64,000 bases of DNA, taken from contig CAVQRM010000001.1 in assembly GCA_963715245.1 (NCBI GenBank), positions 1,218,373-1,282,372 on the forward strand. Reading direction: 5' to 3'. This DNA is from an uncultured Chloroflexia bacterium. GTDB taxonomy: Bacteria; Chloroflexota; Limnocylindria; Limnocylindrales; CSP1-4. Numbering within the stretch: the stretch's first letter is position 1; every line of letters starts with the position of its first letter. The translations under genes were made by a program, and so were the position numbers. The notes under the pieces are model-generated. The model saw only the letters and a program-made list of their open reading frames with translations. It was not told where the DNA came from and made no database searches. Positions 38,941 through 42,796 of this stretch are shown here, piece by piece.

Positions 38941-38997
38941 CCGCCAACTGCGAGTTCCGTGCCGGCACCACCGGGTCGTGCCCGCCCGGCCACGAGG

Positions 38998-39288
38998 CTA
39001 GGCCGCGGGCTCTTCAGCCGCGTCGCGGCCGCCGCCGAGGTCGCCCCGGACGGCTGCGGCGCCGTGGGCCGAGGACCAGGCGATCACGGCCTCGCGCAGG
39101 ACGGTCGAGGACGGGCGGACGGCGAGTCGATCATCGAGACCGCGAATGCCGGTGCCCAGCTCTGCGATGCGACCGCGATACGACGGCCGGTCGCTGTCGG
39201 TCCGCGCGAACGGCGGATAGACGTCGAAGTAGCCGTCGGTGCTCACGACGATGTTCGACTCGGGCGGGGAGAAGGGCGTGCGAGACAT
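38998..39288 (-). CDS. hypothetical 96-aa protein
   Basis: ATG 39288. MSRTPFSPPESNIVVSTDGYFDVYPPFARTDSDRPSYRGRIAELGTGIRGLDDRLAVRPSSTVLREAVIAWSS... has coding-like third-position GC. I recognised no family. Confidence 0.45.
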   Translation of the reverse strand: MSRTPFSPPESNIVVSTDGYFDVYPPFARTDSDRPSYRGRIAELGTGIRGLDDRLAVRPSSTVLREAVIAWSSAHGAAAVRGDLGGGRDAAEEPAA

Positions 39289-39434
39289 GGGGCTGTCCAA
39301 TCCGTCGGTGCGCGAAAGGGGACCAACGGAGCGAGAGTCCTGCACTTGCGACCTGTGACCCCACCATGCCCGCGGACGCCCGTTCCGTCAAATGGCGCTA
39401 CGCGCCCGCCGCCACGCGGGCGTACGCTGGATCC

Positions 39435-40401
39435 ATGGAGCTGCGACCGCTCGGGGCCACGGGGCTCCGGGTCACGCCGATCGGGCTGGGGCTGGCGGCA
39501 CTCGGGCGACCCGCCTACATCACGACGGGCCGCGACCATGACCTGGGCGCTGCCGACGACCGCTCGATCGAGGCGATGGAGGCGCGCAGCCACGAGGTCC
39601 TCGATGCCGCGTGGGCCGCTGGAGTGCGCTACCTCGACGCCGCGCGCTCCTATGGATCCGCGGAGCGGTTCCTTGCCTCGTGGCTCCGGTCGCGCGGCGA
39701 TCGACCCGGCGCTGGTCACGGTGGGCTCGAAGTGGGGCTACCGCTACGTGGGCGAGTGGCGGATGGACGCCCCGGTCCACGAGGTGAAGGACCACGGCCT
39801 TGCGATGCTGCGAGCCCAGCTTCCCGAGTCACGCGAGCTGCTCGGCCCGTGGCTGCGCCTCTACCAGGTCCACTCGGCCACGCTCGAGAGCGGGATCCTC
39901 GGGGACGCTGCGGTGCTCGCCGAGCTTGCCCGGCTCCGGGCGGACGACGGTCTCGCCATCGGGATGTCGGTGAGCGGCCCGCACCAGGCGGACGTCATCC
40001 GCACCGCGCTTGCGATCCGCGTCGACGGCATCAACCCGTTCGCCTGCGTGCAGGCGACGTGGAACCTGCTCGAGCCATCCGCGGGCGCCGCGCTCGCCGA
40101 GGCGCACGCCGCCGGCTGGGGCGTCATCGTCAAGGAGGCGCTCGCGAACGGACGCCTGCTGACGGAGCCGGCCGTTGTCGATGCCGGGGTCCGTGCCGGA
40201 TCGGGGCCCGACGCGGTGGCGCTCGCGGCCGTGCTCGCCAATCCGTGGGCCGACGTCGCGCTGTCCGGCGCCGCGACGCCCTCCCAGCTGCGCTCGAACG
40301 CCGCGGCGGTCGACCTTGCGGGCGTGGACCTGGCACTCCCGGAGCTCGCCGAGTCCCCGGACGCCTACTGGGATGCACGGGCCGCGAGGAGCTGGTCCTG
40401 A
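39435..40401 (+). pseudogene. aldo/keto reductase interrupted by a +1 frameshift near 39696-39700 (pseudogene or assembly indel)
   Basis: The N-terminal third (MELRPLGATGLRVTPIGLGLAALG...AAGVRYLDAARSYGSAERFLASWLRSRG) is in the frame of track ORF 39366. The rest (IDPALVTVGSKWGYRY...LYQVHSATLESG...GVIVKEALANGRLL...) is in the frame of track ORF 38959. Both frames turn to Arg/Pro junk on the other side of the junction. Confidence 0.8.
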
Positions 40402-40442
40402 GCGATCCACGGCCGGTGTCCCGCCTCGGGCACGATGGAGCG

Positions 40443-41687
40443 ATGCGGATCCTGCTCTGGCACGGCTACCTCCTGGGCGGAACGGGCTCGAACGTCTACA
40501 CCCGCCAGCTGGCACGCGCGTGGAGCCGGGCTGGTCATGACGTGACGGTGTTCAGCCAGGATCCTGCGCCGGGGCGCTACGACCTCGGCGGCGCGCGGGT
40601 CGTCCGGCCCGACACCGGCCGCCTCCTTCCCGTGTACGTCCTCGACCGGTACGAGGGTCGCGACGTCCGCCTGATCGGCGACTGCAGCCGGGCGGACCTC
40701 GACCGGTGGGTGGAGGCCAACGCCGGAGCCATGCGCGAGCACCTCCCGGCCGACCTCGCGTTCTGCAACCACGTGCTCCTGGGCGGGCCGGTCGGGCTCG
40801 CGACCGGGGCGCGGTTCGCGGTGAAGGCACACGGCTCCGAGCTCGAGTACGCGATGCGTGGCAACCCCGCGCTGGCCCGATGGGGGAGCGAGACGCTCGC
40901 GCACGCCACGGCCACGTTCGTGGGCTCGGGGCACATCCGGCGCGTCCTCGAGGACGTCTGCGGTCACGTGGAGAACGTGCACGAGGTCCCACCGGGCGTC
41001 GACGTCGACGACTGGCACCCCGAGGAACCCTCGATCGCCCTCGCGGCCCTGGTGGAACAGGCGCGACGCGACCCGCCGAACCCGTCGAACGCCGACGAGC
41101 GGCTCCCGGACGAGGGCAACGCGGACCGCATGGAGCGCTTCCTGCGCGCGGACCGCCCGACCGTCGTCTACTTCGGCAAGCTCATGCGCAACAAGGGCGT
41201 CCACCTGCTGCTCGAGGCGCTCGACGGACTCGACGCCCGAGCCGTGATCGTCGGGTTTGGCGACGACCGTGCGGCCCTGGAGCGCCGGGCGGGCCCGGAC
41301 GTGCTGTTCACGGGCGCGCTGGAGCACCGCCACCTCGTGCACCTGCTCGCCCTCGCGGATGCGTGCGTGGTGCCCTCGATCTTTCCCGAGGCATTCGGCA
41401 TGGTCGCCGCGGAGGCCGCGGCCGCCGGCTGCCCGCCGATCGTCGCGCGCCATTCGGGGCTCGCGGAGATCGCCGCCGGCCTCGAGGAGACGTATCCGGC
41501 GCACCTCCGCCACCTCGCCGCGTTCAACTCGGGCGACGCCGCGGACCTGCGGGCGACGCTCGCGGCGCTCCTCGCCCTCGGTCCCGCCGACCGGGCCGGC
41601 GTGCGCGCCGCAGCCCGACGCGCCGCCGTCGAGCGCTGGAGCTGGAGCAGCGTCGCGGACCGGCTCCTCGCACCGTTCGCCCCTTGA
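40443..41687 (+). CDS. GT4-family glycosyltransferase
   Basis: ATG 40443. MRILLWHGYLLGGTGSNVYTRQLARAW...GKLMRNKGVHLLLEAL...PSIFPEAFGMVAAEAAAAGCPPIVARHSGLAEI is the GT4 E-x7-E region. Track ORF 39366..41687 reaches this frame only through junk read-through. Confidence 0.9.
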   Translation: MRILLWHGYLLGGTGSNVYTRQLARAWSRAGHDVTVFSQDPAPGRYDLGGARVVRPDTGRLLPVYVLDRYEGRDVRLIGDCSRADLDRWVEANAGAMREHLPADLAFCNHVLLGGPVGLATGARFAVKAHGSELEYAMRGNPALARWGSETLAHATATFVGSGHIRRVLEDVCGHVENVHEVPPGVDVDDWHPEEPSIALAALVEQARRDPPNPSNADERLPDEGNADRMERFLRADRPTVVYFGKLMRNKGVHLLLEALDGLDARAVIVGFGDDRAALERRAGPDVLFTGALEHRHLVHLLALADACVVPSIFPEAFGMVAAEAAAAGCPPIVARHSGLAEIAAGLEETYPAHLRHLAAFNSGDAADLRATLAALLALGPADRAGVRAAARRAAVERWSWSSVADRLLAPFAP

Positions 41688-41693
41688 ATCGAA

Positions 41694-41754
41694 GCGCCCC
41701 GCCTCCTCGCGGAGACGGGGCGCCGTCGTGCGGTGGGCGGGCGCGTGCCCGCCC
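41694..41754. terminator. two stacked GC-rich hairpins between the convergent GT4 gene and the micro-ORF
   Basis: GCGCCCCG (41694-41701) / CGGGGCGC (41716-41723). GGGCGGGC (41735-41742) / GCCCGCCC (41747-41754) with a 4-nt loop. On the minus strand the first hairpin is followed by TTCGATT. Confidence 0.55.
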
Positions 41755-41757
41755 CGG

Positions 41758-41853
41758 TCAGATGGGACGGACCGACGCGAGGCCCGCGAGTGCGAGCGCC
41801 GCGACGGCGATGACGCGCACGAGCGCGTCCAGGCGAGGGTGGGCCCGAGGCAC
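41758..41853 (-). CDS. 31-codon hydrophobic micro-ORF downstream of the riboswitch-like element
   Basis: GTG 41853 lies 5 nt after AGGAGG (41859-41864). Product MPRAHPRLDALVRVIAVAALALAGLASVRPI is a single TM-like helix. Too short to verify by composition. Confidence 0.35.
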   Translation of the reverse strand: MPRAHPRLDALVRVIAVAALALAGLASVRPI

Positions 41854-41864
41854 ACCAACCTCCT

Positions 41865-41943
41865 GACTTCGGCAGCCCGGCTGACTCGCTCGCGCGAGCC
41901 CCGTGGCTTTGCGTCCCCGGGTCACCCCGGGTTTGCCCTTGTC
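41865..41943 (-). promoter_or_regulatory. c-di-GMP-I (GEMM-I) riboswitch-like aptamer
   Basis: Minus-strand RNA: GACAAGGGCAAACCCGGGGUGACCCGGGGACGCAAAGCCACGGGGCUCGCGCGAGCGAGUCAGCCGGGCUGCCGAAGUC. It has GGCAAACC, a 6-bp helix with GNRA loop GUGA, GGGACGCAAAGCC, a second helix with GNRA loop GCGA, and AGCCGGGCUGCCGAAG, in the order and spacing of the GEMM-I consensus. Confidence 0.8.
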
Positions 41944-42115
41944 GGCCAGCCACCTGGCTGGGACGGCTCTCACCGCCTGCCCGGGACGCTACCGCCGGAC
42001 CAGGGGCCCGTGCACCCTCCAACCCGTCAGGGTCCGCCCCTGACGATGGAGCCCCGGTACCCATGGGACCGGGCCGCGTCAAGCCGCCGACCGAAGGGAG
42101 CCTGAGCGGCTCCCG

Positions 42116-42796
42116 CTACCGGGCCGGGCGGTCGAAGAGCCGCAGCAGCGAGACGATCAGCGTCTCGATGAGCGTCCACGCGATGAGCGCGACGATTGCC
42201 GCGATGTCCAGGACGGAGCCGTTGCCGCCGGTCACGCTGTCGAGCTGGAAGATGCCCATGAACGGGTCGACGAACGGCTGCGTGATCGAGAGGATCGCGC
42301 TCACGATGTCGTTGTCGGGGTCCGCGTTGAGCAGGAGCAGGACGATCCGGAGGATCAGCAGCGCCTGCAGGATGCCGAACAGGAAGGCGATCACGCGCCT
42401 GACGGTGGACAGCCCGCTCCGGCGTCGGGGCGCGGGGGCGACGGGCTGCTGGACGACGACCGGCGCCGGTGTCGGCGTGACCGTCGGCGGGGCCGCTTGT
42501 GGCACCGGCGGCACGGGTGGCGCAGCAGGAGGTGGCGCCGACGGAGGCTCAGCCGGCGCCGGCGCGGTGCCCATTGCCGGCTCCTCCGCCGTGTCGGCGG
42601 CGACGAGTGCGGCCAGCGACGGGTCCACGACGGGCTCCGTCGATGCCGCATCCGCCTCGGGCTGGGCCGGCGCCGCGGGAGCTGCGGGTGCTCCCGGCGT
42701 CTCGGGCGTCTCGGGTGCCTCGGGCTCGGCTGGTTGGGAGGCCGCGGCGGCCTCGTCGGCCGGCGGCCCCGTGTCAGGGCGGATCGGATCGGTCAT
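42116..42796 (-). CDS. YggT-family membrane protein with long Pro/Ala-rich N-terminal region
   Basis: ATG 42796 (alternative GTG 42811). The C-terminal 95 aa, VIAFLFGILQALLILRIVLLLLN...ILSITQPFVDPFMGIF...VLDIAAIVALIAWTLIETLIV, are YggT-like. The N-terminus is low complexity (PAEPEAPETPETPGAPAAPAAPA...). Confidence 0.75.
   Translation of the reverse strand: MTDPIRPDTGPPADEAAAASQPAEPEAPETPETPGAPAAPAAPAQPEADAASTEPVVDPSLAALVAADTAEEPAMGTAPAPAEPPSAPPPAAPPVPPVPQAAPPTVTPTPAPVVVQQPVAPAPRRRSGLSTVRRVIAFLFGILQALLILRIVLLLLNADPDNDIVSAILSITQPFVDPFMGIFQLDSVTGGNGSVLDIAAIVALIAWTLIETLIVSLLRLFDRPAR

Follow-up and report, generated by a model that had tools for sequence, protein, structure and literature searches.

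A candidate class I c-di-GMP riboswitch directly upstream of a conserved 31-codon micro-ORF in uncultured Chloroflexia

Riboswitches for cyclic di-GMP (c-di-GMP) are usually interpreted through large downstream genes, such as those for pili, flagella, adhesins and cytochromes, and riboswitches that have no downstream gene are classed as orphans or as antisense regulators. In the class I aptamer Vc2 of Vibrio cholerae, the ligand is contacted by nucleotides G20, A47 and C92 (PMC4744006). A small-protein output has been described in C. difficile, in which five class I riboswitches (Cdi1_6 and Cdi1_8-11) control the CD1980.2 family of membrane-associated, sporulation-promoting proteins of 58 amino acids (aa). 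Two of these loci had formerly been thought to lack a coding sequence; regulation is by premature transcription termination, with the riboswitches acting as OFF switches, and according to the authors the family has no homologues outside C. difficile (bioRxiv 10.64898/2026.06.10.731418). Here, we analyse a 64,000 nt stretch of DNA, referred to throughout as the window, from an uncultured Chloroflexia bacterium (contig CAVQRM010000001.1, positions 1,218,373 to 1,282,372). On its minus strand, a predicted class I c-di-GMP aptamer at 41946-41867 is followed directly by an open reading frame (ORF) of only 31 codons.

This region is best explained as a small gene complete in itself, ~285 nt long and read from the minus strand (about 41978 to 41694). 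Its RNA would carry, in order, two short hairpins, the class I aptamer, a strong Shine–Dalgarno (SD) sequence, the GTG-initiated 31-codon ORF and two terminator hairpins. Binding of c-di-GMP to the aptamer would most likely alter the frequency with which ribosomes initiate on the micro-ORF. The regulated product would be the peptide, which probably works as a small subunit in the membrane, either regulatory or membrane-perturbing. What we infer in this picture is the promoter, the binding of the ligand, control at translation, insertion into the membrane and the function of the peptide, and we assign a probability of roughly 0.7 to the full reading, that of a riboswitch with a regulated 31-codon membrane peptide and control at the level of translation.

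A scan of the whole window against Rfam 15 (cmscan, 4227 families) produced a single match, at 41946-41867 (-), to RF03167 (c-di-GMP-I-GGC). The match covers the full model (1-80 of 80) at 64.3 bits, above the gathering score of 59 bits, with E = 7e-13. The scan reports the best model of clan CL00126 for each site, and two lower-scoring overlapping clan matches lie behind RF03167. The first-pass annotation had proposed a GEMM-I-type riboswitch, and the clan match and the canonical G/A/C contacts bear this out; the best model is RF03167 and not, as had been expected, RF01051. The c-di-GMP-II family (RF01786) served as a negative control: when 41600-42200 was scanned permissively (E <= 10), this family was not matched, and the extra matches were noise on the flanking hairpins.

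The full-length structural alignment contains the P1-P2-P3 architecture, with GUGA, a GNRA tetraloop, in P2. In an alignment of 14 orthologues, which was evaluated with RNAalifold and explicit pair counts and underlies all RNA features described below, P2 and P3 are paired in 100% and 99% of cells. All of the sequence elements that had been listed for the locus were present: GGCAAACC at 41937-41930 (-) is followed by the hairpin CCCGGG-GUGA-CCCGGG, by the block GGGACGCAAAGCC, which we take to be identical to the Vc2 block, by the hairpin CUCGC-GCGA-GCGAG and by AGCCGGGCUGCCGAAG. The trinucleotide GUC does stand next to AGGAGG, but its proposed role as the 3' strand of P1 did not hold; Rfam places CG..G (41871-41867) there, and GUC is at most a possible extension of the helix.

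The consensus lines of RF03167 and RF03168 differ at model positions 10 (G/U), 37 (G/A) and 75 (C/U), which would correspond in our mapping to G20, A47 and C92 of Vc2. Read off the same lines, the hallmark of the GGC family would be a G that replaces A47: the RF03167 consensus is ACGCGAAgCc (ACGCGAAGCC), with G at this site, whereas the window has ACGCAAAGCC, with A. At the three positions the window carries G (41937), A (41910) and C (41872), and it thus has neither the GGC hallmark nor the U at 20 and 92 of the UAU family (RF03168). The same middle nucleotide was found more widely. A pattern scan of 185,579 species genomes yielded at least 120 loci with 122 aptamers from many phyla, and amongst the matches listed all 122 similar aptamers have A at the middle position and none has G. 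For each of 14 related loci tested, RF03167 was the best Rfam model (61.9-77.9 bits), again always with A at the middle position. Because the contact positions form the canonical G/A/C triad, we read the variant label as an artefact, and we conclude that the window aptamer is a canonical class I c-di-GMP aptamer of the GEMM-I clan, predicted to bind c-di-GMP. The GGC label looks like a by-product of overall sequence similarity, or of competition between related models.

The labelling problem extends beyond the window. Clan competition in Rfam labels canonical G/A/C aptamers as RF03167 or RF03168, and near-identical orthologues receive different labels; the aptamer of a close orthologue, L121 (6849-6928), was assigned to RF03168 (UAU) at 75 bits despite G and C at the 'U' positions. 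Ligand annotation from the family name is therefore unsafe, and the practical warning is that 'GGC' and 'UAU' labels on canonical aptamers could mislead ligand inference.

The aptamer and micro-ORF recur together. Amongst the matches listed from the genome scan, four loci (L013, L032, L065 and L095), all in metagenome-assembled genomes (MAGs) of uncultured Chloroflexia, carry the same SD and micro-ORF. A metagenome scan that used the aptamer plus GGAGGTT as the query, with the ORF left unconstrained, returned 24 loci, 13 of them with the same 31-codon ORF, and two more copies (L148 and L149) were reached through a protein-library match. There are at least 21 further instances beyond the window, namely 18 loci, L148, L149 and the protein-library variant P0121. 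The genome-derived orthologues are all labelled uncultured Chloroflexia and the other instances come from metagenomes; the copies found are chromosomal, and viral contigs held no copy of the unit. These labels, together with homologues of the neighbouring YggT protein, which are mostly labelled Chloroflexota, place the window in Chloroflexota and not in an actinobacteria-like genome, as had first been suggested. In L121, which has the same gene order as the window, the stretch from putative promoter to terminator is ~93% identical, compared with only 69% for the flanking YggT protein.

The micro-ORF (41758-41853 (-)) runs from GTG (41853-41851) to TGA (41760-41758) and encodes the peptide MPRAHPRLDALVRVIAVAALALAGLASVRPI, with one predicted transmembrane (TM) helix. 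The SD, AGGAGG (41859-41864 (-)), is positioned 2 nt 3' of the aptamer and 5 nt 5' of the GTG, and GGAGGTT is invariant across all orthologues. The window has a G+C content of 72.5%, and for this reason a 31-codon ORF means little by itself; the case for its reality rests on comparative data. Codon-level analysis was based on 18 complete copies, representing 14 unique nucleotide sequences, and L148 and L149 provide two further complete copies. In 20 of 20 complete copies the ORF has exactly 31 codons and a GTG start, with a TAG or TGA stop at one fixed position (TAG in eight and TGA in six of the unique sequences). The first-pass annotation had proposed a genuine micro-ORF, and its GTG, frame, length and hydrophobic peptide are all kept in these 20 other copies.

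The substitutions follow a coding pattern. Of the alignment columns that vary, 15 fall at the first codon position, 8 at the second and 20 at the third. At least 58 codon-state changes are required, of which 27 change the amino acid, meaning that 53% are silent (60% for codons 7-31), compared with 29% and 7% in the other two frames; the suggested contrast of synonymous and non-synonymous change thus came out in favour of coding. Pooled pN/pS is 0.58 in frame, against 1.14 and 1.83 off-frame. Replacements in residues 10-28 all stay within hydrophobic or small classes, and nucleotide conservation collapses directly 3' of the stop codon. With good confidence, we consider it likely that the micro-ORF is translated. 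The consensus peptide, M-[PA]-R-[GA]-H-P-R-L-D-A-L-V-R-V-[CL]-A-V-A-A-L-A-[LI]-A-G-[IM]-A-S-V-R-P-I, has one segment of TM-grade hydropathy (best 17-residue Kyte–Doolittle mean, 2.35). Its N-terminus is basic, the hydrophobic helix that follows spans ~19 residues, and the A-S-V-R-P-I at the C-terminus is conserved.

Several points weigh against a translated micro-ORF under riboswitch control. The pN/pS of 0.58 is no more than moderate, chiefly owing to variation in codons 2-6, and the orthologues are closely related, with covariation and dN/dS figures that derive from few independent events. The ORF is almost never called by gene finders, and is uncalled in L121. Constraint folding of the 14 orthologues left the SD ~80% paired whether the aptamer was enforced, free or blocked, and no alternative pairing of the aptamer with the ribosome-binding site was stronger than in shuffled or non-cognate controls. 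To our knowledge, no ligand has been established for RF03167, the best-model family, and the ligand binding, translation and membrane location of the unit are predictions from sequence. Finally, two blocks of the ORF (codons 9-14, and codons 28-31 with a rare CGT) are invariant even at synonymous sites, which implies that some of the constraint is on the RNA itself.

The last observation would also be expected if the riboswitch controlled a non-coding RNA, with the 31-codon frame being incidental and the segment acting as a small RNA (sRNA) or structure in the manner of EutX/Rli55. The perfect hairpin formed by codons 9-14 and the rare CGT in codons 28-31 fit such a role, as do the frequency of open frames at this G+C content and the rarity with which gene finders call the ORF. 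However, the copies agree in frame, length, start and stop position even though they do not all use the same stop codon, only this frame is enriched in silent changes, and the replacements are conservative. The strong SD at ideal spacing, the end of conservation at the stop codon and the retention in distant relatives of a hydrophobic ORF of 35-36 codons with A-S-V-R, written in different codons, also speak against a non-coding RNA, which we regard as quite unlikely. The RNA may nevertheless have a dual function, both coding and structural.

Existing annotation has largely passed over the peptide. Searches of the peptides against Pfam and NCBIfam gave nothing above the cut-offs, and exact look-ups of the window peptide and of its YggT neighbour found no record for either. 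A scan of 1.84 billion representative proteins returned only four peptide matches (P0121-P0124). P0121 is a 29-aa variant with an ATG start. For P0122, P0123 and P0124, gene calls had been started upstream and run through the aptamer, and the resulting products, 47-76 aa long, share the ending ...VRPI; the same applies to L148 (702-845). The segment '...KGKPGVTRGRKATGL...' in such mis-extended calls is translated aptamer. A 71-aa ORF in the window, starting from a GTG at 41973, was rejected as well: the distance from aptamer to start codon varies modulo 3 amongst orthologues, so that longer, upstream-initiated readings are not conserved.

Behind the same type of aptamer, more distant ORFs of 35-36 codons were found in a Chloroflexi CF_16 MAG (L040, 709-813 (-)), a Limnocylindrales MAG (L068, 3190-3297 (+)) and a soil metagenome contig (L136, 734-844 (+)). 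All three keep a C-terminal A-S-[VA]-R that is encoded by different codons, including TCG, TCC or AGC for Ser. The motif and leader hairpins shared with the window suggest one wider peptide family. A match of the L136 peptide to YohP was weak (E 0.045) and far below the cut-off.

A second class of unit was observed in other Chloroflexia MAGs (L003 4228-4422 (+), L004, L023, L057, L108 and L116). Behind an aptamer of the same type, these units have GGAGG, a small hairpin surrounding the start codon (GTG or TTG) and a hydrophobic ORF of exactly 35 codons, of which VEVQISPRVRIAARAALNFGLVVAVLLAAAANVQG is an example peptide; a GC hairpin or a classical terminator comes after the ORF. The coding signal of this class is weaker, with pN/pS of 0.79 compared with about 1.02 off-frame. 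In four further loci (L124, L125, L131 and L146), the gene behind the same aptamer and SD has ~160 codons and encodes a Gly-rich secreted or membrane protein anchored at its N-terminus, a further riboswitch output that recurs in related metagenome contigs.

The spacing of the elements bears on how the micro-ORF would be regulated. Only 13 nt (41866-41854), with no terminator, separate the aptamer from the start codon, and the SD follows the end of the Rfam aptamer by 2 nt in the window and by 2-6 nt in relatives. As there is no room for a terminator between aptamer and start, and the SD lies beside P1, control of translation initiation is the most economical reading, and mRNA stability may be affected in a coupled manner. 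The RNAalifold consensus gives moderate support to a hairpin in which codons 2-8 pair with the SD and start codon (41831-41864 (-)). It is paired in 95.8% of cells, six sequences have C-G and five have G-C at columns 155:162, and in partition-function folds the SD has an unpaired probability of ~0.2. SD pairing is equal in all three aptamer states, and the folding tests brought out no switching helix from which the direction of regulation could be read. We lean slightly, and weakly, towards ligand binding switching the gene OFF, because the SD would be squeezed between a stabilized P1 and the start hairpin, and because the C. difficile examples are OFF switches.

Two candidate switching interactions were considered. 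Pairing of the HP2 region of the leader with the SD and spacer (-10 to -16 kcal/mol by RNAduplex) was rejected as unsupported; cognate pairs did not outperform shuffled leaders, of which a fraction of 0.08-0.39 was at least as stable, or non-cognate class combinations. RNAalifold also proposed that ORF codons 27-30 pair with GACG and GCCGA in the aptamer core. We did not adopt this pairing, which has no compensatory changes, is broken in some sequences and lacks the necessary complementarity in L040 and L068.

Conservation of the unit starts at a putative -10 box, TAGCGT (41986-41991 (-)). All orthologues have a TANNNT sequence (TAGCGT, TAGGTT, TAGGGT, TACCGT or TACAGT) fixed 6-8 nt 5' of the conserved CAGGCGG, and its constant distance from the first leader hairpin, HP1, suggests a transcription start near 41978. 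A consensus scan for sigma-70 promoters and terminators, which demands sigma-70 hexamers and a T-run, gave no matches. The leader, ~32 nt 5' of the aptamer, consists of two hairpins. HP1 (GGCGGU-GAGA-GCCGUC; 41962-41977 (-)), at the predicted 5' end of the RNA, is paired in 100% of cells, and two of its pairs occur as three types each (GU/GC/AU and UG/CG/UA). HP2 (CCAGCC-AGGU-GGCUGG; 41946-41961 (-)) abuts the 5' strand of P1 and combines an invariant stem with a variable loop (97% of cells paired). An HP1-like hairpin with a GAGA(G) loop and the CCAGC/GCUGG stem of HP2 are also present in the distant relatives L040 and L068.

Within the ORF, codons 9-14 form the perfect 7 bp hairpin GACGCGC-UCGU-GCGCGUC (41812-41829 (-)), which is paired in 99% of cells and nearly invariant while synonymous sites vary elsewhere in the ORF; the changes that do occur fall in the loop or give G-U pairs. 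After the stop codon there is a GC hairpin, GGGCGGGC-ACGC-GCCCGCCC (41735-41754 (-)), and then a second hairpin of 13 bp, followed by UUCGAUUC (41694-41723 (-)). The 41760-41684 region folds into these two hairpins with a minimum free energy of -54.5 kcal/mol (z = -5.35; none of 200 shuffles was as stable). GC hairpins stand directly 3' of the stop codon in every orthologue, with sequences that differ. The second hairpin is likely to be a bidirectional terminator, common to the unit and to the convergent glycosyltransferase (GT4) gene that ends at 41687. Taken as a whole, the named structure is paired in 97.7% of cells, a figure that drops to 33-44% on displacing the partners by 1-3 columns; the similarity of the orthologue sequences leaves little covariation.

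The unit is preceded on its own strand by a YggT-family gene (42811-42116), with a 4Fe-4S protein gene farther upstream. A GC hairpin at 42093-42114 (-), GGGAGCC-GCUC-AGGCUCCC followed by UUCGG, stands directly 3' of the YggT stop codon, had only noise-level Rfam matches and is probably the terminator of the YggT gene. A terminator at this point would mean that the riboswitch unit is transcribed from a promoter of its own. A near-palindrome, GGTCCCATGGGTACC (42056-42070 (-)), was observed ~80 nt 5' of the predicted transcription start. The window and L121 both have it, whereas it is not conserved in more distant orthologues, and it may be a protein-binding site or a coincidence.

Downstream, the micro-ORF is the only ORF within the riboswitch transcript, and the convergent plus-strand GT4 gene ends 180 nt from the aptamer. 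The absence of a normal-sized downstream gene, as first described, was upheld. A 497-aa minus-strand ORF (41858-40365) was rejected as the regulated gene, as it has no Pfam match and is the antisense shadow of the plus-strand GT4 gene.

The position of the GT4 gene raises the possibility of antisense action, whereby read-through into the gene would repress it and link c-di-GMP to polysaccharide synthesis. Across riboswitch classes, those for c-di-GMP are the strongest in lying antisense to a gene (152 cases, P = 4.6e-62; PMC9943018), and the end of GT4 on the other strand is close to the aptamer. Yet two very stable hairpins separate the ORF from the GT4 gene, and the convergent gene is not conserved: GT4, which is found with an upstream YggT gene in the window and L121, is replaced in L148, L032, L095 and L013, and it is the ORF that is conserved instead. 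L148 has a convergent aldo-keto reductase gene and no GT4, and L032 has MatE upstream and a 1168-aa convergent ORF downstream. In L095, an HTH gene lies upstream, and a tRNA and a KdpD-like kinase gene follow on the same strand; L013 and L137 have thymidine kinase (Tdk) upstream and DUF2807 downstream, and L130/L140 and L135 have other convergent genes. These differences between loci indicate that the unit stands alone and count against both antisense control of GT4, which we consider very unlikely, and the role of a leader peptide.

As a leader peptide, the micro-ORF would be translated only to tune termination or read-through into downstream genes. L095 and L013/L137 do have same-strand genes within 100-350 nt, and leader peptides are similar in size. 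Nevertheless, a convergent gene comes next in the window, L121, L032, L130/L140, L135 and L148, and the peptide is conserved along its length, with a TM-like helix, a conserved C-terminus and no run of regulatory codons; we give this role very little credence. The regulated membrane peptide thus remains our preferred reading.

Several further features of the neighbourhoods were observed. tRNA genes lie on the same strand downstream of the unit in L095 (4697-4769 (-), ~200 nt) and in L129 (7896-7968 (+), ~1 kb). In the window at 38959-41687 (+), similarity to aldo-keto reductases is split over the overlapping ORFs 38959-40401 and 39366-41687, 5' of the GT4 domain. The 773-aa plus-strand ORF is probably not one gene, and may reflect a frameshift or stop-poor, high-G+C DNA that lets ORFs run on; the corresponding genes of L121 are called as separate short products. 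A search for GGDEF and EAL motifs within the window gave no convincing match.

The function of the peptide could be that of a membrane poison resembling type I toxins, in which c-di-GMP, instead of an antisense RNA, gates translation and leads to growth arrest or persistence. This is a sub-case of the regulated membrane peptide and not an alternative to the riboswitch reading. A 31-aa product with a single hydrophobic helix and charged ends, encoded at a stand-alone locus in variable contexts, resembles type I toxins, and so does a heavily structured mRNA with an occluded SD and start codon. On the other hand, no antisense RNA or promoter turned up, in an analysis that made no search aimed at antisense RNA and at a G+C content that weakens promoter prediction. 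There was no match in Pfam or NCBIfam, a search to which the defence-system library did not belong. In addition, the copies are chromosomal, with none on a viral contig, and the purifying selection is that of an ordinary gene. On balance, we consider a toxin-like role unlikely.

If the regulated membrane peptide is the correct reading, the gene controlled by a c-di-GMP riboswitch in Chloroflexota can be a conserved membrane peptide of 31-36 codons that annotation pipelines overlook, and the ~285 nt unit offers a compact test system. We tentatively extend this to a possibility in which we have limited confidence, that one-TM micropeptides of 29-36 residues are a widespread and nearly unannotated direct output of class I c-di-GMP riboswitches across Chloroflexota. 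The proposed set would comprise the window type (class A), the 35-codon class B and the L040, L068 and L136 types. They would be made from stand-alone mRNAs of ~0.3 kb with conserved leader and in-ORF hairpins, in which the RNA might have a dual function or form an expression platform not yet described, and the peptides would be c-di-GMP-gated membrane effectors, for example toxin-like depolarizers or subunits that modulate a membrane complex. Many of the 'orphan' or 'antisense' c-di-GMP riboswitches of genome surveys would then be explained likewise.

Compared with described systems, the aptamer is most like GEMM-I (RF01051, V. cholerae Vc2), with which it shares three helices, the GGCAAACC, GGGACGCAAAGCC and GCCGGGYUGCCG blocks, a GNRA loop on P2 and the G20/A47/C92 contacts. 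It differs from Vc2 in its high-G+C Chloroflexota setting, its two conserved leader hairpins, an SD only 2 nt from the aptamer, and a 31-codon ORF as the sole downstream gene. RF03167 is the best-scoring model, yet the window and its relatives have A and not G at the A47 site. Like the antisense-type riboswitches (PMC9943018), the window riboswitch lies within 500 nt of the 3' end of a convergent gene, but here it is the coding micro-ORF and terminators that are conserved and not the convergent gene; some of the 'antisense' calls in surveys of this kind may be riboswitches with unannotated micro-ORFs. The peptide is similar to small membrane proteins and type I toxins such as KdpF, MgtS, YohP, TisB and Fst in its length of about 30 aa, single hydrophobic helix, charged flanks and frequent lack of annotation. 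No sequence relationship to these proteins was detected, and control would be by a riboswitch and not by an sRNA or two-component system.

The closest parallel is in C. difficile, where a class I riboswitch also stands directly 5' of an unannotated or hypothetical gene for a small membrane protein, membrane association being a prediction in our case. The arrangement, which the first-pass annotation had believed to be undescribed, is therefore not new in general (bioRxiv 10.64898/2026.06.10.731418), whereas our full-text literature search found no paper describing a c-di-GMP riboswitch with a small ORF in Chloroflexota. The two systems belong to different phyla and differ in the size of the product (31 aa here and 58 aa there); the sporulation role has no obvious counterpart here, and no terminator lies between aptamer and ORF, the strong hairpins being found after the stop codon. 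The aptamer class is known and the small-membrane-protein output has its precedent in C. difficile, so the 31-residue unit of Chloroflexota broadens that precedent and adds no new principle. Viewed alongside the C. difficile report, it suggests that c-di-GMP signalling through riboswitches generally has small membrane proteins as an output, and that this is no peculiarity of clostridia.

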